The position numbers and the translations under genes are program-made. This document shows, piece after piece, positions 4,183 through 25,191 of a stretch of 51,450 nucleotides of DNA (positions are counted from its first letter, which is position 1; each line of letters opens with the position of its first letter). Below the pieces are notes generated by a model, which saw only the letters and a list, made by a program, of their open reading frames with translations, did not search any database and had not been told where the DNA came from. The stretch comes from Patescibacteria group bacterium. GTDB lineage: Bacteria; Patescibacteriota; Minisyncoccia; Phycocordibacterales; JBBUBG01. Location of the stretch: assembly GCA_040384765.1 (NCBI GenBank), contig JAZKIQ010000003.1:1-51450 (forward strand). The letters run 5' to 3'.

Positions 4183-5313
4183 ATGAAGATACTCGGAATA
4201 GAAACAAGCTGCGACGAAACAGCTATTAGTATCATCGAAGCAACCGGAGGGCTCGAGAAGCCCAGCTTTGCGGTACTTTCAGAGGTAACGATCACTCAGC
4301 TCGACTTGCACAAAGCATACGGTGGGGTTGTGCCAAGCCTCGCCAAGCGCGAGCACCAGCGCACACTGATGCCGGTACTCATTGAGGCGATTGAACGATC
4401 GGGTGTCGCATGCGAGAAGAAAACGATTGCGCAGATTCCCGAGCTCGAGGCACTTCTCCCGAAAGAGCCCGATCTTTTGGCTGCATTTCTCCACCGTAAA
4501 GACGAATTTCTGTTTCCAAATATTGACGCGATAGCCGTTACGCACGGACCAGGCCTCGAGCCAGCGCTCTGGGTGGGAGTCAACTTTGCAAAGGCCCTTT
4601 CTCTCGTCTGGGGCGTACCCATCGTGCCCGTGAATCATATGGAAGGGCATCTGCTCTCCGGGCTTCTTGAGGGCGCAATCTCTTTTCCAACCCTTGGGCT
4701 TCTGGTATCGGGTGGCCACACAGAGCTCGTGCTCGCAAAAGCCTGGTGCGACTATGAGATCCTTGGCGCTACCCGCGACGATGCCGTCGGCGAAGCGTTC
4801 GACAAAGTGGCGCGCTTGCTCGGCCTTCCGTACCCAGGAGGTCCGGCTATTTCAAAACTTGCCGAAGAGCCGAGTGAACTCGCGTTTACGTTGCCTCGAC
4901 CGATGATCCATTCGGACAACTATGATTTTTCTTTTGCTGGTCTCAAAACAGCAGTTTTGTACCTCACCAAGGAGCTTGGTGCTCTCAGCGACGAACAGAA
5001 GCGAGCTATCGCGCGTGAGTTTCAAAATGCTGCAATAGATGTACTCATTTCAAAAACAAAGCGAGCGCTCGAACAATACTCTCCACGATCTTTCGTAATC
5101 GGGGGAGGAGTTTCTGCAAATACCGAGCTGCGCAGACGCATGACCGAGCTTCTCCATGATGAGTTTCCTGATACAACTCTCACCATACCGTCATTCAAAA
5201 TGTCGACCGACAATGCAACCATGATTGCGATTGCCGGATATATACGACACCAAAAGGGAGGGATACGTGAGGCAGGTGAAATACGAGCCGAAGGGAACCT
5301 ATCGCTCGCATAA
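4183..5313 (+). CDS. tsaD: tRNA N6-threonylcarbamoyladenosine synthase
   Basis: ILGIETSCDETA, HMEGH, SGGHT, DDAVGEAFDK, TDNATMIA. Confidence 0.97.
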   Translation: MKILGIETSCDETAISIIEATGGLEKPSFAVLSEVTITQLDLHKAYGGVVPSLAKREHQRTLMPVLIEAIERSGVACEKKTIAQIPELEALLPKEPDLLAAFLHRKDEFLFPNIDAIAVTHGPGLEPALWVGVNFAKALSLVWGVPIVPVNHMEGHLLSGLLEGAISFPTLGLLVSGGHTELVLAKAWCDYEILGATRDDAVGEAFDKVARLLGLPYPGGPAISKLAEEPSELAFTLPRPMIHSDNYDFSFAGLKTAVLYLTKELGALSDEQKRAIAREFQNAAIDVLISKTKRALEQYSPRSFVIGGGVSANTELRRRMTELLHDEFPDTTLTIPSFKMSTDNATMIAIAGYIRHQKGGIREAGEIRAEGNLSLA

Positions 5314-5366: not shown

Positions 5367-5522
5367 CTAGCCAGCAACCTTTTCGTCTTCTTCGCCCGGC
5401 AATGCCTCTTCGGCCTCCTTGGCCTTCGGCGGCAGAATACTCGGGATATCTTCTCCGAGACCCCCTTCATCACCTTCCGGTATATCACGCGGGGTTGCGC
5501 AATCGATCTTTAAGTTCTTCAC
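5367..5522 (-). CDS. Small acidic orphan protein (51 aa, not in ORF track)
   Basis: GAGGAG SD upstream of GTG; MKNLKIDCATPRDIPEGDEGGLGEDIPSILPPKAKEAEEALPGEEDEKVAG*; ends just before a hairpin. Confidence 0.5.
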   Translation of the reverse strand: MKNLKIDCATPRDIPEGDEGGLGEDIPSILPPKAKEAEEALPGEEDEKVAG

Positions 5523-5648
5523 ACTCGCTCCTCTCAATCAGTGGCATCTTAGCGATGCGTCCTTCTCTAGAGATACGCTACCCGGACACTGACCATCGGT
5601 CAAGAAGCGAGCCTTCAAAAAACGGCTTCATTTTGATACAGTGCACAG

Positions 5649-7823
5649 ATGGACGATAAATTCCTCGAGCCGTACGATCACAAGGCAACTGAAGCCCGCA
5701 TCTACAAAGAGTGGGAGGAGAGCGGCTATTTCAACCCGGATATCTGTATTGAAAAAGGGGTAACTGCCCCGGACGCAGAGCCATACACAATAATGATGCC
5801 GCCGCCAAACGCGACAGGTGTCCTCCATATGGGCCACGCACTCATGCTCACCATCGAGGATATTCTCGTGCGCTATCATCGCATGAACGGCCGCCGCACC
5901 CTGTGGCTTCCCGGGACCGACCATGCAGCCATTGCCACACAATCAAAAGTTGAAAAAGAGATCTCAAAAAAAGAGGGAAAGTCTCGCCATGACCTCGGGC
6001 GAGAGGAGCTCGTGCGTCGAATAGAGGAGTTTGTTGAGGATAGCCGCTCGACTATTCGCTCCCAAATCCGCGTGATGGGCGCCTCGTGCGACTGGTCACG
6101 AGAGGCTTTTACCTTCGATGAGCCCCGCAACCGTGCAGTACGTACCATCTTCAAGATGATGTACGACGATGGCCTCATTTATCAGGGCAATCGTATCGTA
6201 AACTGGGACCCAAAAGGCCAAACGACAATTTCAGATGATGAGATCGTGCACGAAGAGCGAGTCACGAAGCTATACACCTTTAAATACTCGCCAGACTTCC
6301 CCATCTCCATTTCAACCACTCGCCCAGAAACAAAAGTGGGCGACACTGCAGTAGCTGTGCATCCAGATGATCCACGATACAAAGAGTATGTTGGCAAAGA
6401 GTATGACATGGTGTTTGCCGGTGTCCCCATCCATATCAAAATCGTTGCAGATGAAGAAGCAGACCCCGCATTTGGTACAGGCGCACTTGGCGTCACACCG
6501 GCGCATTCCCAAGCAGACTGGGCTATCGCTGACCGCCACAACCTCCCACGCCCACAGGTGATCAATGAGTTCGCAAAGATGACCGTGGGTGGGCCAGAAC
6601 TGCTTGGCAAAAAAACAACTGAAGCACGCGAGGTAATTGTATCGTGGCTCCGCGAGCAAAACCTGCTTGAAAAAGAGGAAGATACCAAACAAAATATCTC
6701 GACCGCCGAACGCACGGGCGGTGTCGTAGAACCACTTCCGAAGCTTCAGTGGTTTATTGATGTAAATAAAAAAATCTCTGCTCGTGGCAACCGCTCGCTC
6801 AAGGAGCTTATGCGAGATGCAGTGGCTGGCGAAGAAAAAGATGGACCAATCCGTATTGTTCCTGAGCATTTTTCAAAAACCTATTTCAACTGGATCAACA
6901 ACCTCCGCGACTGGTGCATCTCGCGCCAGATCTGGTACGGACATCGCGTGCCAGTATGGTATCGCGGTGATGAGATGTACTGCGGCGTAGAAGCTCCAGA
7001 GGGCGCAGGCTGGGAACAAGACCCTGACACCCTCGACACCTGGTTCTCTGCTGGCATCTGGACCTTCTCAGCACTTGGCTGGCCAGAGAAAACGGAAGAC
7101 CTCAAGATCTATCACCCGACACATGTTCTTGAAACAGGGTACGAAATTCTCTTTTTCTGGATCGCACGCATGATCCTTATGACCGAGTACGCACTAGGTG
7201 AAGTACCCTTTAAAACGATCTACCTCCACGGCACAGTACGAGATGGCCAAGGCCGCAAAATGTCCAAGTCGCTCGGCAACGGTATCGACCCGCTCGATAT
7301 CGCAGAAAAATTCGGTGCAGACGCAGGCCGTATGGCCCTTATTGCAGGCACCGCACCAGGTACCGACAGCAAGATCTCTGAAGACAAGATCAAAGGCTAC
7401 AAGCATTTCGCAAACAAAATCTGGAACATCACCCGGTTTGTACTTTCGAACACAGAGAATATACCAAGTGAAGAACCAGCCCTATCCGAAAAAGATGCAG
7501 CACACGTGAAGGAGCTGGAAACCCTCTGTCGCGAAGTGACTGCCGACCTCGAAGCGTATCGCCTCCATCTCGCATCGGAAAAAATCTATCACTATATCTG
7601 GCACACCTTTGCTGACGTAATCATCGAGGAGGCCAAGCCGCGACTTTTGGGCGCAGATGCCGCCGACAAACTCTCATGCCAATGGTTTCTCCGCGAGGCG
7701 CTTCTTACCTCACTCCAACTCCTCCATCCTTTTATGCCTTTCGTTACGGAAGAGATCTGGAAAAGCGCACGCTGGCCAAACCTCTCCCCAGTGCTCATGG
7801 TCGAGAAGTGGCCAAAAGGATAG
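5649..7823 (+). CDS. valS: Valine--tRNA ligase (short form)
   Basis: PPPNATGVLHMGH, PGTDHAAIATQ, DWCISRQIWYGHR, KMSKS. Confidence 0.97.
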   Translation: MDDKFLEPYDHKATEARIYKEWEESGYFNPDICIEKGVTAPDAEPYTIMMPPPNATGVLHMGHALMLTIEDILVRYHRMNGRRTLWLPGTDHAAIATQSKVEKEISKKEGKSRHDLGREELVRRIEEFVEDSRSTIRSQIRVMGASCDWSREAFTFDEPRNRAVRTIFKMMYDDGLIYQGNRIVNWDPKGQTTISDDEIVHEERVTKLYTFKYSPDFPISISTTRPETKVGDTAVAVHPDDPRYKEYVGKEYDMVFAGVPIHIKIVADEEADPAFGTGALGVTPAHSQADWAIADRHNLPRPQVINEFAKMTVGGPELLGKKTTEAREVIVSWLREQNLLEKEEDTKQNISTAERTGGVVEPLPKLQWFIDVNKKISARGNRSLKELMRDAVAGEEKDGPIRIVPEHFSKTYFNWINNLRDWCISRQIWYGHRVPVWYRGDEMYCGVEAPEGAGWEQDPDTLDTWFSAGIWTFSALGWPEKTEDLKIYHPTHVLETGYEILFFWIARMILMTEYALGEVPFKTIYLHGTVRDGQGRKMSKSLGNGIDPLDIAEKFGADAGRMALIAGTAPGTDSKISEDKIKGYKHFANKIWNITRFVLSNTENIPSEEPALSEKDAAHVKELETLCREVTADLEAYRLHLASEKIYHYIWHTFADVIIEEAKPRLLGADAADKLSCQWFLREALLTSLQLLHPFMPFVTEEIWKSARWPNLSPVLMVEKWPKG

Positions 7824-9917: not shown

Positions 9918-10086
9918 CGCCTCTCCTTGTTCATCTCCCCCAGATCTATACCCTCCGCAGGATACCTGAGGCGAGCTCCCTTGGAAAGCTCTGCTGGTCG
10001 ATTGGTGCCGCGTGAGTGAATCGAACACTCTTCAGACGCTCTTCAGGCGTCTGCTTTACCGTTAAGCTAACGCGGCTTAGGCATCT

Positions 10087-10460: not shown

Positions 10461-10494
10461 AAAAAAATAGCCGCCCGAGATGTGCCCGGGCGGC
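10461..10494 (-). terminator. Terminator closing the ribozyme-containing operon
   Basis: GCCGCCCG...CGGGCGGC stem followed by TATTTTTTT on the - strand. Confidence 0.75.
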
Positions 10495-12310: not shown

Positions 12311-12423
12311 GTTGAACCCCAAACTGAATTTTGAACTGCACTACCACTGTCGGTCATACAATACTGCGCGGTGCTAAAAAGCATCGTACGCGCGGACTTT
12401 CAAAATTCAGTTCGGGGTTCAAC
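12311..12423 (-). ncRNA. Repeated structured RNA motif, copy A (family unknown)
   Basis: 25-bp closing stem with core GAACTGAATTTTGAA/TTCAAAATTCAGTT; inner GCGCG-TACGA-hairpin-C-CGCGC; homologous to 14980-15071. Confidence 0.6.
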
Positions 12424-12526: not shown

Positions 12527-13039
12527 CTACTCGGTGCGGATAAGCACCGACGGCCCCAGGATCTGCACCCGCTCTCTGCGGCGCTTCTCCCGGCGCTCCT
12601 TCTCACCGATCAGCACGTTGAGCTGCCGGGCCCGAGCCTTCAAGGCCAAGTTCTGCCAGAAGAGGATCAGGTAGATCTTCTTCTGCACGGCGTTGGTCCG
12701 CTCGATGAACTCGAGCGCCGGCGCGATCTCCGCGTCGGCCGGCGCGATCTCCGCGTCGGCCCGCACCCTCTTCACGAGCGGCACGAACCGATTGCTGACC
12801 CGCTCCGCGAACTTCTCGAAGCGCGGCTGCTCCCGCTCCATGATCCTCGCCAGGCGTCCTTCGAGACGCTTGCTCGAGCTCGCCCGGAGGCGGTCGAGGT
12901 CGAGGCCATGAAAGAGGCGCTCGTAGCACAGGAGCGTCACCGTCTCCTCCGCGACCACCGTCTCGATGGGGGTGTACCCATGAGCCGACGATGCGAGGGC
13001 GACCGAGATGAACAGCACTGCGAACATGAGCTTCTTCAC
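12527..13039 (-). CDS. Secreted helical orphan protein
   Basis: AAGGAG SD before GTG; MKKLMFAVLFISVALASSAHG signal peptide. Confidence 0.72.
   Translation of the reverse strand: MKKLMFAVLFISVALASSAHGYTPIETVVAEETVTLLCYERLFHGLDLDRLRASSSKRLEGRLARIMEREQPRFEKFAERVSNRFVPLVKRVRADAEIAPADAEIAPALEFIERTNAVQKKIYLILFWQNLALKARARQLNVLIGEKERREKRRRERVQILGPSVLIRTE
12717..12758. repeat. Exact in-frame 21-bp tandem duplication
   Basis: GCCGGCGCGATCTCCGCGTCG x2, encoding ADAEIAP twice. Confidence 0.9.
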
Positions 13040-13281
13040 GAGAACGCTCCTTCCCGATGCGCGAAGCATCGGATCATTCCACCCTTCCTGCAGATTTTGC
13101 ACGGAGGAGTTTGGAAGCGTGGCCTCAATTTTTGAGATAACGATTCCAAACTCCTCCTTCAAAGAACATCTTTCAGGACCTACGATCCTTTCAGATCACA
13201 AATCCATTCAAGACGGACAGGTGGGCATTTTTCATGCGAAACACCTGTCCGTTACCTCTACTTCTTGCCTACCTGCTTTTC

Positions 13282-14538: not shown

Positions 14539-14611
14539 GAGCAACTGTTTCGTCCTTTCGGACTCATCAGGCGGAACGTCGTATTGACGTAAATTCCGCG
14601 ACAGGTGGCTC
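14539..14611 (-). ncRNA. Type III hammerhead ribozyme (HHR2)
   Basis: CUGUC^GCGGAA-(UUUA bulge, CGUC/GACG)-UUCCGC-CUGAUGA-GUCC-GAAA-GGAC-GAAA-CAG; complete core, GUC triplet, cleavage predicted between 14600 and 14599. Confidence 0.93.
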
Positions 14612-14639
14612 GCGAGAACCCGAGGGTTCCCGCCAGCCG

Positions 14640-14771
14640 CTACTCTTCCATGAGTTCTTTAATACGATGGTCCCGTCGCTCTCGGGGCGTCATGTTCGCG
14701 AGCCTCCAGAGGCTCACCGACATTTTCACCATTCCGATCGCGAGCGACCCGACCGCGACTACAGCCAGCAT
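14640..14771 (-). CDS. Small TM peptide (43 aa) or frameshifted 3' part of 14759-14941
   Basis: GGAG-N6-ATG; MLAVVAVGSLAIGMVKMSVSLWRLANMTPRERRDHRIKELMEE*. Confidence 0.45.
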   Translation of the reverse strand: MLAVVAVGSLAIGMVKMSVSLWRLANMTPRERRDHRIKELMEE

Positions 14772-14941
14772 GCCATTCTCCGAGCAACCGTCGGGTTGCC
14801 CCAGGTGGTCATGCGCCGCTCACTGCTCTTTTCCCGCTCGACACGCACCAGGTGCGCTTCGAGGGAGATGCGCGCGAGCATCTGTCCACCGAGCCACCCA
14901 AACGCGATCAGTACCGGCGAGAAGATCAGCACGATTGTCAT
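14759..14941 (-). CDS. Small TM orphan protein (60 aa)
   Basis: AAAGGAG-N6-ATG; MTIVLIFSPVLIAFGWLGG hydrophobic start. Confidence 0.6.
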   Translation of the reverse strand: MTIVLIFSPVLIAFGWLGGQMLARISLEAHLVRVEREKSSERRMTTWGNPTVARRMACWL

Positions 14942-14979
14942 CTCAATCTCCTTTGTCAGAAAAACTACAGCTCCCGATG

Positions 14980-15071
14980 CGGAGTCCCGAACTGAATCTT
15001 GAAACCTAACGGCTGCGCAGTGGAAAAATTTCCATCGATATGCGCTATTCAAAACTCAGTTCGAGACTCCG
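14980..15071 (-). ncRNA. Repeated structured RNA motif, copy B (family unknown)
   Basis: 24-bp closing stem with core GAACTGAGTTTTGAA/TTCAAGATTCAGTTC; inner GCGCA-TATCGA-hairpin-C-TGCGC. Confidence 0.6.
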
Positions 15072-15085
15072 TTTTTAATGTTCTT

Positions 15086-15136
15086 CTGCTTTCGCTCTTT
15101 CGAGCTCATCAGTCGGGATACACATCCCGAGAGCAG
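15086..15136 (-). ncRNA. Type III hammerhead ribozyme (HHR1)
   Basis: CUGCUC^UCGGGA-UGUGUA-UCCCGA-CUGAUGA-GCUC-GAAA-GAGC-GAAA-GCAG; all three stems pair; cleavage predicted between 15131 and 15130. Confidence 0.93.
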
Positions 15137-15193
15137 TCGGTATCTATTGGAGACACCGCGAGACTTTATAGAGTTTCTCGATCTCTTTTAGTG

Positions 15194-15766
15194 CTAGTAG
15201 TTAGCGAGCAGCGCGAACGGGGAGGTCCGGTCTTCCTCGATGTGGACATCGCGAACGATGTCCACGAGCGTGAAGTTCCGGTTCTCGACCACCCTGGACG
15301 GGAGCCCCATGAAGGAGCTCTCCCTCCCGGTGGCCGTGTCCCACTCGAGCGTGACTTCGAGGGTTTCGGCATCGACAGTTGCCTGGAACCAGCGACCAGT
15401 GGTCGCAGCACCATCCCAGCGGAGGATGGAAACCGTTCCAGTGGTAAATACATGTGCATTGATCCACCAGCTGCTTGCCGATGAGAAGCCGAGCATCGCT
15501 TGCTCAGCCAACTTCGTGAGTGCCGTCGGCAAGTCCAGCTTCCGGTAGATCGCTTCCCAAAGGGCTTCGTCGTACCGCCCCTGGATCCCCACGCGAAGGA
15601 ACTGGTCCAAACCGAGGCGTACCGCTTCGGCCCCGACACCAATCGCCCTTCCATGGGTAGCGACCCCCGTCTCGATCTCTTCTCCGTCACTGATGACGTC
15701 GAAGAAAGAAGTCGGGAGGCTTGCGAAGCGGACTGCGGACTGGGCACCATTCTGGATTGCGTTCAT
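15194..15766 (-). CDS. Orphan protein (190 aa), first gene of the ribozyme operon
   Basis: GGAG-N7-ATG before MNAIQNG; long open frame. Confidence 0.7.
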   Translation of the reverse strand: MNAIQNGAQSAVRFASLPTSFFDVISDGEEIETGVATHGRAIGVGAEAVRLGLDQFLRVGIQGRYDEALWEAIYRKLDLPTALTKLAEQAMLGFSSASSWWINAHVFTTGTVSILRWDGAATTGRWFQATVDAETLEVTLEWDTATGRESSFMGLPSRVVENRNFTLVDIVRDVHIEEDRTSPFALLANY

Positions 15767-15774
15767 GATCATTC

Positions 15775-16492
15775 TCCGTGGTCGCTCTGCGACCGACAAT
15801 CGAAAAAAGTTTCAAACAATCCTCTATAGCTATGGCGAGGCGAACTACAAACTAGCACTTGGAAATGTACTACCCGGATACCATGTCCGAGAGAAATCTA
15901 GGCAGAAGCGCGAGGATCCAAATTTTAAATAATTGATCTCGGGTCCGCCCAGGTTTCTCTCCTCAATCACACCCGCCACAAGCTTCGCAAGTTGGCGGAT
16001 TATTTTTCGTATACGAAAAATAAAAAGCGATTGAGATCTACCTTTAGAAAAAGATATGCCTCAATCGCTCTTCGATTCGTTGTCCCGAATCAAGGCGAAG
16101 GTTTGGCTCTCTCTTTCCAAAACTTCATATTTAGTTTTCAAATTTCCTACCCCCACTCGAGTAAACGAACTATTTCATTTACTCGATAAGGGGAGGGGGT
16201 CATGAGCGGCGCGCGGCGTTGTGAAAGTCGAATGCGCGCCGAATCACTCCCCCTCGTCGATCGAACAAAGTTGTCGATCCGTCAACCATACTCAGAATTC
16301 AAAGGAACCTCCTCTGTAAAATTCCCTGTACAATACAGTATCCGCGAATCGGCATTTGGTACGGGGGCTTCCCTTCTGGACCCTTAAAGTTTCCTTCAAA
16401 GGTGGAGCGAGCCGTCCTACGCCGCGCGATGTGGGGAGCTGGTCACTAGGTGGGCATCGGTCGCCCATCCCTCAACCTGACCTTATCCCTAC
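15775..16492 (-). ncRNA. ~720-nt hairpin-tiled non-coding leader (putative large structured RNA)
   Basis: No convincing ORF; more than ten consecutive stem-loops; starts just after a strong promoter. Confidence 0.5.
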
Positions 16493-16498
16493 ATGAGT

Positions 16499-16528
16499 AT
16501 AATAGCATACTATTGACTACTTTGTCAA
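16499..16528 (-). promoter_or_regulatory. Sigma70 promoter of the ribozyme operon
   Basis: TTGACA(16523-16528)-N18-TATTAT(16499-16504) with an extended TG. Confidence 0.6.
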
Positions 16529-16587: not shown

Positions 16588-16595
16588 CATATTTG

Positions 16596-16667
16596 TGCCC
16601 CTGGGAGGAATTGAACCACCATCTACCCCTTAGGACGGGGCTGTTCTATCCGTTGAACTACAAGGGC
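16596..16667 (-). tRNA. tRNA-Arg(CCT)
   Basis: GCCCTTGTAGTTCAACGGATAGAACA-GCCCC-GTCCTAA-GGGGT...GGTTCAATTCC...GGGGCA. Confidence 0.9.
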
Positions 16668-24749: not shown

Positions 24750-24777
24750 AAAGGCCGCCCGTGAGGGCGGCCTTTTC
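24750..24777. terminator. Terminator after RNase P RNA
   Basis: AAAAGGCCGCCC-GTGA-GGGCGGCCTTTT. Confidence 0.8.
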
Positions 24778-24781
24778 ATGT

Positions 24782-25111
24782 ACTGTATCTGTAAGCCGAA
24801 TTCTGTATCCACCGAAATGGACGATAGGCATTTATCTGGGCCTCACATTACTGTGAAGCTCGAGCGGCACTCCCTCCGAAGAGGGCACGGCCTTGCACTG
24901 AAGTAAGGATTTAGCCGTTTCACCCTCGTGTTACCACGAGGACGGTCCACGGGGGACCTCCTAGTCTTTCGACATCGGACGTTTCTGCTCGCACCTCTTG
25001 GATTACTCCAGACGGGTGTTACCCGCTACTCTCGCCACATCAATGAATTGTTGCAGCTCAGTGTTCGGACTTTCCTCTCCTGCTCTCGCAGGAGCACCTA
25101 CCCGACACAGC
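24782..25111 (-). ncRNA. rnpB: RNase P RNA
   Basis: GAGGAAAGTCC near the 5' end, ACAGAATTCGGCTTA near the 3' end, P1 GCTGTGTC/GATACAGT; TTGACT-N16-TATAAT promoter at 25118-25145. Confidence 0.95.
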
Positions 25112-25191
25112 AATACAATTATACCATAACTAACCGATAAGTCAAAAAGAAAAAACCGCCAGATAGCGGTTTTTTCTTTTCTAGCCTCTTT

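Follow-up and report, generated by a model that had tools for sequence, protein, structure and literature searches.

A compact type III hammerhead ribozyme, HHR1, is encoded on the minus strand at positions 15136..15086 of a 51,450-nucleotide (nt) stretch of DNA from a Patescibacteria group bacterium (GTDB lineage Bacteria; Patescibacteriota; Minisyncoccia; Phycocordibacterales; JBBUBG01; GenBank assembly GCA_040384765.1, contig JAZKIQ010000003.1, positions 1 to 51,450). The whole stretch is referred to below as the window. HHR1, first described in an earlier note that a model made from the sequence letters, is real, correctly read and correctly classified. Judged by its sequence, it is almost certainly a true self-cleaving hammerhead. 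It belongs to the already known clustered hammerheads of bacteria and phages and is not a new kind of element. HHR1 is probably functional within a polycistronic mRNA, in which co-transcriptional cleavage would uncouple the neighbouring cistrons.

Structure of HHR1

The minus-strand sequence of 15136..15086 matches, letter for letter, the one written out in the earlier note, which had also claimed a full core and stems I to III made entirely of Watson-Crick pairs. Both claims are borne out, as 15 of the 15 pairs are Watson-Crick and no core position deviates. Stem III consists of 5 pairs (15136-15132 with 15090-15086) and is followed by C17, the cleavage-site nucleotide, at 15131. Cleavage is predicted to occur between 15131 and 15130. 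Stem I, which has 6 pairs (15130-15125 with 15118-15113), is closed by the 6-nt loop 1 UGUGUA. The core strand CUGAUGA (C3-U4-G5-A6-N7-G8-A9) spans 15112-15106 and leads into stem II, which comprises 4 pairs and the GAAA loop 2 (15105-15094). The G12-A13-A14 strand lies at 15093-15091, and A15.1, at 15090, is opposite U16.1 (U15132). The pairs adjoining the core are U-A (1.1-2.1), G-C (10.1-11.1) and A-U (15.1-16.1). Stems I and II are closed by loops and stem III is open, which is the type III topology. The sequence thus has every feature of the type III class to which it had been assigned, and its helices co-vary in relatives.

The same core is found in most of the 55 full-length relatives collected. 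The heptamer is identical in 52 of them, core mutations occur in 3, and the GAAA formed by G12-A13-A14 and A15.1 is present in all 55. The cleavage triplet of HHR1, CUC, obeys the N-U-H rule. CUC is used by 4 relatives and GUC by 32, and position 17 is a G in none.

The minimum-energy structure obtained with RNAfold for the 51-mer is the hammerhead fold (-19.1 kcal/mol, z -2.93, 3 of 200 shuffles as stable). For a 121-nt nascent transcript ending at the ribozyme, the minimum-energy structure combines the hammerhead fold with an 8-pair hairpin located immediately upstream (15158..15138, minus strand). This hairpin, which is found in both the minimum-energy and the centroid structures, lies 1 nt before stem III and 7 nt from the predicted new 3' end.

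Conservation of pairing

In an alignment of 18 compact copies, the rows of which were picked and aligned by structure-aware covariance models and are biased toward structure in this respect, 97.8% of the 270 cells are paired, and 13 of the 15 pairs have changed on both sides. The covariation score was reached by none of 500 shuffles. When the partners were slid by 1-3 columns, only 34-47% of the cells could pair. An alignment of 56 copies, built in the same way and sharing the same bias, gave similar figures (97.3% of 829 cells paired, two-sided changes at 13 of 15 pairs).

Additional copies were retrieved by pattern scans that fixed only loop 1, the core, the AAA in loop 2 and CGAAA, and did not ask for pairing. 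Stem I is nevertheless fully paired (6/6) at all 105 unique IMG/VR sites and at 133 of the 134 unique genome sites found in this way, and stem II (4/4) at the same numbers of sites. At least 4 of the 5 pairs of stem III can form at 102 of the 105 IMG/VR and 131 of the 134 genome sites, and a G at position 17 was found in neither set. A copy from a sister genus keeps the hammerhead fold by compensating changes. By comparison with these relatives, HHR1 is close to the family consensus.

Model scores and significance

A leave-out covariance model, R2, was built from 24 hammerheads of 17 other genomes, with none taken from this genome to avoid circularity. Over the 822,710-base genome, R2 assigns HHR1 70.1 bits (E 3.6e-18). 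Only two matches in the whole genome have E<=1, HHR1 and a second hammerhead, HHR2, described below. The same two sites are the only ones in the window that match the sub-pattern CTGATGAG-N10-CGAAA with at most one mismatch. This number compares with 0.06 expected, and none of 100 shuffles reached 2.

The earlier note had proposed a cmsearch with the Rfam model Hammerhead_3 (RF00008) as a check. The model does find the site end to end, but its score is under the curated gathering cut-off. HHR1 scores 32.0 bits, with an E of 4.9e-4 for 5 kb and of 5.1e-3 for the full window, and 33.9 bits (E 5.6e-6) when Hammerhead_3 alone is run on the whole genome. The gathering score is 48.5 bits, and is a curation rule rather than a property of the RNA. 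Consequently, a default Rfam scan of the window at the gathering threshold lists no hammerhead, and the hammerheads appear only with E-value thresholds. As seen in the printed alignment, Hammerhead_3 is built for a stem III of 7 pairs and a loop 2 of 8 nt, while HHR1 has 5 pairs and 4 nt. Relatives fall short too. Hammerhead_3 gave 26 matches in 61 related genomes, all 26 under the gathering score, and matches were found in 12 of the 60 relatives searched, often 2-5 of them on a single strand, a few hundred bases apart. Because the model expects a longer stem III and loop 2, and because relatives score equally low, the sub-threshold score denotes no defect of HHR1.

Loops 1 and 2

The loops of HHR1 had been likened in the earlier note to those of viroids and satellites. 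The claim is backed indirectly by the loop forms, which are conserved and found together in relatives. Among the 55 full-length relatives, UGUGUA is the commonest loop 1 (13/55), and loop 1 starts with UG in 43. In loop 2, AAAA is the most frequent form (31/55), followed by GAAA, the form of HHR1 (9/55). A UG-starting loop 1 of 5-6 nt is present in 39 of 45 rows with a 4-nt loop 2 and in 2 of 10 rows with a long stem II (Fisher p about 9e-5, with kinship ignored and 3 of the 10 long-stem-II rows being paralogues). This association is what a loop-loop contact predicts. In natural hammerheads, peripheral loops confer activity at physiological Mg2+ (PMC6155905), and, by analogy, HHR1 may be active at low Mg2+.

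Loop 1 of HHR1 was also observed, with either a GAAA or an AAAA loop 2, in two IMG/VR records of 366 and 377 nt (L094, L120). Their Hammerhead_3 scores, 44.2 and 43.8 bits, are also under the gathering score. The two records have the size of virusoids and look like viroid-like or satellite RNAs.

Distribution in genomes and viruses

The distribution of the compact form was surveyed with a model that includes HHR1, R1, at E<=0.001. Of 150 other genomes from the same order, 35 contain compact hammerheads (at most 8 copies per genome), as do 16 of 150 genomes of the same phylum, the listed sizes of which range from 0.4 to 1.4 Mb. None was found in 150 genomes of a control phylum, that of a Polynucleobacter-titled genome; the comparison should be read bearing in mind that the R1 surveys scored 32 first-look candidates per genome, a limit that may cost more in larger genomes. 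All four genome surveys, i.e., the Hammerhead_3 search of relatives and the three R1 surveys, used the stricter filters of Infernal.

An exact-pattern scan of one genome per species identified at least 120 stretches carrying the compact form. Among the 80 matches listed, some of which share a genome, 61 have Saccharibacteria, Parcubacteria-group or 'Patescibacteria' titles, 11 come from other phyla and 8 are unlabelled. In the NCBI taxonomy the Parcubacteria group is within the Patescibacteria group, and Saccharibacteria is a candidate phylum; in GTDB usage, Saccharibacteria are placed in Patescibacteria. At least 120 viral stretches with the compact form were identified in IMG/VR, and 71 Pseudomonas phage records, PaP3 included, share one compact hammerhead. 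As far as these sequence scans reveal, Patescibacteria-type genomes and phages frequently carry the compact form. Literature searches pairing hammerhead with candidate phyla radiation, Patescibacteria, Saccharibacteria or Parcubacteria, in which co-mentions were judged by titles and abstracts, returned nothing relevant. Routine annotation misses compact copies because every copy scored with Hammerhead_3 fell under the gathering score.

Sequences flanking HHR1

Hairpins similar to that at 15158..15138 abut stem III in 33 of 47 order relatives, as opposed to 10-19 of 47 at five control offsets, and at 62 of 88 IMG/VR sites, as opposed to 9-16 of 88 at the controls. Downstream, HHR1 is followed by an A-rich single-stranded spacer of 14 nt (15085..15072, minus strand). 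In relatives, this position is occupied by the box GTTCTTT(G/A)A, a pattern that the spacer of HHR1 does not match. The box is present at none of 105 viral sites and at 30 of 134 named-genome sites. The window contains 2 boxes, as compared with 0.35 expected, and 6 of 100 shuffles reach this number. The box was considered as a promoter and rejected, as no promoter-like site was called at any box.

The spacer is followed by motif B, a 92-nt, nearly perfect long hairpin (15071..14980, minus strand), located on the 5' side of ORF2, the second of the open reading frames (ORFs) discussed here. AAGGAG and an ATG come next. A 252-nt fold including motif B has a z of -6.04, and none of 200 shuffles is as stable. 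Motif B matches no Rfam family at E<=1.

Motif B is repeated. A copy with 81% identity is present on another contig (C4 32089-32174; L298 1501-1586), and a diverged copy is found in the same gene array as HHR1 (12423..12311, minus strand). Partial copies occur in the sister genus, one of them located behind a hammerhead in which four stem I pairs are compensated. In the motif B copies examined, a short box precedes the hairpin by a few bases and a ribosome-binding site follows it. A hammerhead precedes only the copy at 15071 and one sister-genus copy. A related arrangement was observed in the window at 13167..13103 (minus strand), where the box GTTCTTTGAA stands directly before a 26-pair hairpin and no ribozyme match is found upstream. 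This hairpin overlaps the longest reading of the next ORF, the true start of which is probably at 13039.

In relatives, too, ribozymes are often followed by translation signals. A ribosome-binding site and a start codon are found within 400 nt downstream at 35 of 50 order sites (median 113 nt) and at 68 of 92 viral sites (median 24 nt). The genome of another member of the order (L173, G011:C1) has a hammerhead and a long hairpin (5234-5307) directly upstream of a Ro60/TROVE gene (5402-7246), which has 614 codons and encodes a vWA domain.

HHR2

The second type III hammerhead, HHR2, is located at 14607..14542 on the minus strand, between ORF3, which ends at 14640, and the next small ORF. Its cleavage is predicted between 14600 and 14599, 531 nt from the predicted HHR1 cut. 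HHR2 scores 45.8 bits with Hammerhead_3, 49.8 bits in a further scan and 51.5 bits with R2 (E 2.6e-12). Its loop 1 is 17 nt long and contains an extra 5-pair helix. A 9-pair G+C-rich hairpin (14633..14612, minus strand) is found just upstream. In a 121-nt context, the 3' flank of HHR2 pairs with the end of ORF3 and displaces stem III; according to this prediction, the alternative pairing could be a competing or regulatory fold.

The small-gene array

HHR1 and HHR2 are embedded in an array of small genes. In the genome, which is 822,710 bases (0.82 Mb) long and 99.83% complete, the array is flanked on either side by housekeeping genes (TsaD, a class I tRNA synthetase, PrsW, Hsp20, LepA and MurJ), and the locus is therefore part of the chromosome, not a stray phage contig. 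From the tRNA-Phe gene (10003-10076) to the tRNA-Arg gene (16595-16667), all plausible genes are on the minus strand. The array consists of about 13 ORFs of 37-190 codons, which have ribosome-binding sites; several have hydrophobic N-termini.

ORF1 (15766..15194, minus strand, 190 codons) starts with an ATG, has GGAG upstream, and would have its 3' end set by HHR1. On the minus strand, the end of ORF1 at 15194 is followed by HHR1 and then by the start of ORF2 at 14941; HHR1 is thus placed between the first ORF and motif B, as had been stated in the earlier note. ORF2 (14941..14759, minus strand, 60 codons) has a hydrophobic N-terminus and the ribosome-binding sequence AAGGAG at 14953-14948. 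ORF3 (14771..14640, minus strand, 43 codons), which also has a hydrophobic N-terminus, starts within the end of ORF2. A candidate start of the transcription unit is a promoter-like site at 16528..16499 (minus strand), in which TTGACA and TATTAT are separated by 18 nt and a TG precedes the latter (11 of 12 consensus matches). A candidate end is a terminator-like hairpin at 10494..10470 (minus strand), with 10 pairs, 9 of which are G-C, and a T run.

Pfam assigned no family to 9 array proteins. The sole PHROG match was weak, to a family of unknown function, and concerned a protein that lies outside the unit. A search of 5.8 billion protein clusters with ORF1 retrieved only ORF1 itself and one relative at 54% identity, and an ESM Atlas search with ORF1 gave best scores of 0.88 with low recognition and no lead. 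When the array proteins were compared by tblastn with the flanks of other hammerheads, at 18 and then at 297 loci (2.1 Mb), no shared unit genes were found, and the sole match in the 297 loci was p97, which is outside the unit. No integrase or phage family was recognised among the proteins scanned at the locus, the other scanned neighbours being housekeeping proteins, and no attachment-site direct repeats of the flanking tRNA genes were found. Because the array ORFs are orphans, the array may still be of degraded or unrecognised phage origin. The sequencing runs listed for the stretch include no RNA run; the three DNA rows belong to one study, and only one of them holds most of the stretch.

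Other features were noted in the window. Between the promoter-like site and ORF1, about 720 nt (16490..15767, minus strand) have no convincing ORF and contain two hairpins (16193..16150 and 16072..16023). In the same interval, a box-like GGTTCCTTTGAATTC is found at 16309..16295 (minus strand), preceded by ACAGAGGA. The two sequences resemble the 3' end of the hammerheads of relatives and may be a ribozyme relic. A class A bacterial RNase P RNA is encoded at 25113..24776 on the minus strand (114.9 bits, cut-off 100), with several helices shorter than in the model. Six tRNA genes are present.

Comparison with known hammerheads

Type III hammerheads of plant satellites and virusoids, such as the tobacco ringspot virus satellite, presumably have the same topology and helix lengths as HHR1, together with a UG-starting loop 1 and a four-base loop 2. 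They cut multimeric replication intermediates of circular replicons; in contrast, HHR1 is present as a single copy within an operon of chromosomal DNA and belongs to no repeat.

A parallel comes from phages. The PaP3-type hammerhead is likewise a compact type III ribozyme, with a 6-pair stem I closed by a UGUGU(A/G) loop and a 4-pair stem II with a NAAA loop. It is identical to HHR1 at 23 of 25 nt across stem I, loop 1 and the core, scores 61.7 bits with R2, is unannotated, and lies directly before an ORF. It differs in having a U-U at the first stem II pair, where HHR1 has a canonical G-C, and another stem III. Moreover, in the phage the start codon comes immediately after the ribozyme, without an intervening long hairpin, and the host is a proteobacterium. 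The PaP3 hammerhead is included among active variants in the legend to Fig. S6 of PMC3088659, although the legend alone does not establish that the same site is meant. In Pseudomonas phage Clew-1 (L303), a second hammerhead-like match with long loops (2335-2396, 12.9 bits, E 0.013) was observed directly before the next early ORF.

HHR1 and HHR2 resemble the clustered bacterial and prophage hammerheads described by Perreault et al. in 2011 (PMC3088659) in being intergenic, on the coding strand, several close together and next to small genes. As reported there, clustered hammerheads flank single genes or short blocks of changing identity, a role in the processing of long transcripts was proposed, and in vitro cleavage was shown for three arrays. 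The same picture of clustered hammerheads is given in PMC6155905 and PMC6765202, where the role is called open. The present locus differs from the arrays of PMC3088659 in its 0.82-Mb host, in the housekeeping genes on both sides and in the lack of a recognised integrase or phage family among the scanned proteins. In addition, only type III ribozymes are found here, and in the order they have an abutting hairpin upstream and often a long hairpin downstream.

Proposed role of HHR1

Uncoupling of the cistrons could proceed as follows. A minus-strand transcript would start at 16528..16499 and run through about 13 small orphan ORFs to the hairpin at 10494..10470. Once the polymerase has passed 15086, the ribozyme would fold and cut after C15131; because of the type III topology, the cut falls near the 5' edge of the motif. 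The upstream product, containing the leader and ORF1, would have a 2',3'-cyclic phosphate end located 7 nt past the 8-pair hairpin. The downstream product would begin with a 5'-hydroxyl on U15130, paired in stem I, and continue with the rest of the ribozyme, motif B and the ribosome-binding site for ORF2-ORF3. HHR2 would perform the same cleavage 531 nt further on. The cistrons would thereby be physically separated, each provided with structured, nuclease-resistant ends and a fixed 5' leader, and their stability and translation could become independent. Insulation and stabilisation are favoured because the new 5' end is flush and structured and the ribosome-binding sites are intact.

By analogy, the HHR1 locus would be a natural counterpart of the RiboJ insulator. 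In E. coli, RiboJ, a satellite-derived hammerhead with a hairpin before the ribosome-binding site, approximately doubled the level of mRNA and raised that of protein 2- to 10-fold (PMC6206723). As at the HHR1 locus, a type III hammerhead, a hairpin and a ribosome-binding site follow one another, and cleavage drops the upstream part and leaves a structured 5' end. RiboJ differs in being man-made and in having a hairpin of 23 nt, compared with 92 nt here; it was tested in E. coli, which has RNase E, an enzyme not found in this genome.

Several observations weigh against this proposal. In the minimum-energy fold of the 252-nt segment, a stretch located just past motif B is base-paired to part of the core and of stem III, and the 121-nt minimum-energy fold of HHR2 has no stem III; if these predictions are correct, competing folds in longer contexts could lower the cleavage yield. 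The Rfam scores of HHR1 (32.0-33.9 bits) are under the gathering score of 48.5. In named genomes, hairpins abutting stem III are in no clear excess (49/106, as compared with 32-42/106 at controls), and the 120 nt downstream are no more structured than controls. Given the absence of hairpin enrichment in named genomes, the hairpin-ribozyme-hairpin module characterises the order and the viral set rather than the class in its entirety. The promoter-like and terminator-like sites are consensus matches only, and the 2 promoter-like sites found in the whole region compare with 3.1 expected from shuffles. While the sequence, fold, covariation, distribution and gene layout are observed directly, we infer from them that the array is co-transcribed as one unit, that cleavage takes place in vivo, and in which direction expression is changed.

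The nuclease repertoire of the genome also weighs against a stabilising effect. RNase J (511.8 bits, cut-off 400) and RNase Y are encoded, and RNase E/G was not found in the genome; with this set of enzymes, cleavage could lower the expression of ORF2-3. The 5'-hydroxyl would then mark ORF2-3 and the genes beyond for 5'-to-3' decay by RNase J, leading to a stepwise fall in expression of the glmS or 'torpedo' kind. In Bacillus, RNase J1 degrades the RNA that glmS ribozyme cleavage leaves with a 5'-hydroxyl, and products with this end are its preferred substrates. That glmS cleavage is followed by degradation by cellular RNases is established, as summarised in PMC6765202. Nevertheless, the nucleotide that would form the new 5' end of the HHR1 product is paired in stem I, so that a nuclease would find no unpaired 5' end, and stem II and the 92-nt hairpin come next. 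The downstream ORFs retain strong ribosome-binding sites, and the viral start codons, at a median of 24 nt past the ribozyme, are placed as in a 5' leader built for expression. Down-regulation is, on balance, unlikely.

A broader view, which we regard as quite doubtful, is also conceivable. In this small-genome lineage, the hammerhead could be one interchangeable front end of a modular leader, made up of the box, motif B and the ribosome-binding site, that has been copied around the genome and serves as a housekeeping-like punctuation of operons. HHR1 would then define precisely where a discrete motif-B RNA or a leader-capped mRNA begins, and ribozyme-made ends would stand in for the promoter-terminator pairs and the RNase E-type processing missing from these reduced genomes.

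In another reading, HHR1 would make the exact 5' end of a separate, structured motif B RNA, which would act on its own as a small RNA, as a decoy for proteins or as a mobile repeat, with any effect on the mRNA being secondary. Motif B starts 15 nt past the ribozyme, folds far better than shuffles and is a repeated element, with the 81% copy on another contig and the partial sister-genus copies, one of them behind a hammerhead. In addition, the hammerhead and long hairpin of another genome of the order are located upstream of a Ro60/TROVE gene, the products of which bind structured RNAs. However, two or three motif-B-like copies have no hammerhead (12423..12311, the copy on contig C4 and the box-plus-hairpin at 13167..13103), most copies lead directly into a ribosome-binding site, motif B itself is followed by that of ORF2 and not by an element forming a 3' end, no TROVE gene was found in this genome, and the viral set leaves no room for such an RNA. 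A motif B RNA as the main product is thus improbable.

A relic without activity, or a chance look-alike, that came in with a horizontally acquired gene cassette is a very unlikely explanation of HHR1. Its score is under the Rfam cut-off, and the orphan genes around it suggest a recent acquisition; however, the core is intact, the R2 match has an E of 3.6e-18 and the sister-genus copy keeps the fold through compensating changes, while relics would be expected to carry core mutations, as do 3 of the 55 relatives.

It is very unlikely that HHR1 and HHR2, two same-strand type III hammerheads 531 nt apart, release the intervening 531-nt RNA (15130..14600) as a circle, in the manner of viroid-like RNAs and retrozymes. 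The product ends are those joined by RtcB-type RNA ligases, and the possibility was raised for clustered hammerheads in PMC3088659, which reports that no such product was detected. However, no RtcB gene was found in this 99.83% complete genome, and the excised piece contains two ORFs whose ribosome-binding sites are ordinary. The two ribozymes are not repeated copies and have three different stems each; the 5' strand of HHR2 stem III cannot pair with the 3' strand of HHR1 stem III, which leaves the ends apart and self-ligation unsupported.

The proposed separation of cistrons by HHR1 in a polycistronic mRNA bears on a long-standing question, as the function of bacterial hammerheads has been called open since 2010-2011 (PMC6155905, PMC6765202). 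The locus is a clean case, in which two canonical ribozymes are located in one same-strand array of small genes in a 0.82-Mb genome. Annotation can profit from this result, which also opens a route to a functional test. If the ribozymes did act as housekeeping-like operon punctuation, doubtful as this is, Patescibacteria would be a cellular lineage in which hammerheads have a housekeeping-like role, and cultivable Saccharibacteria carrying the same form would offer a test system.

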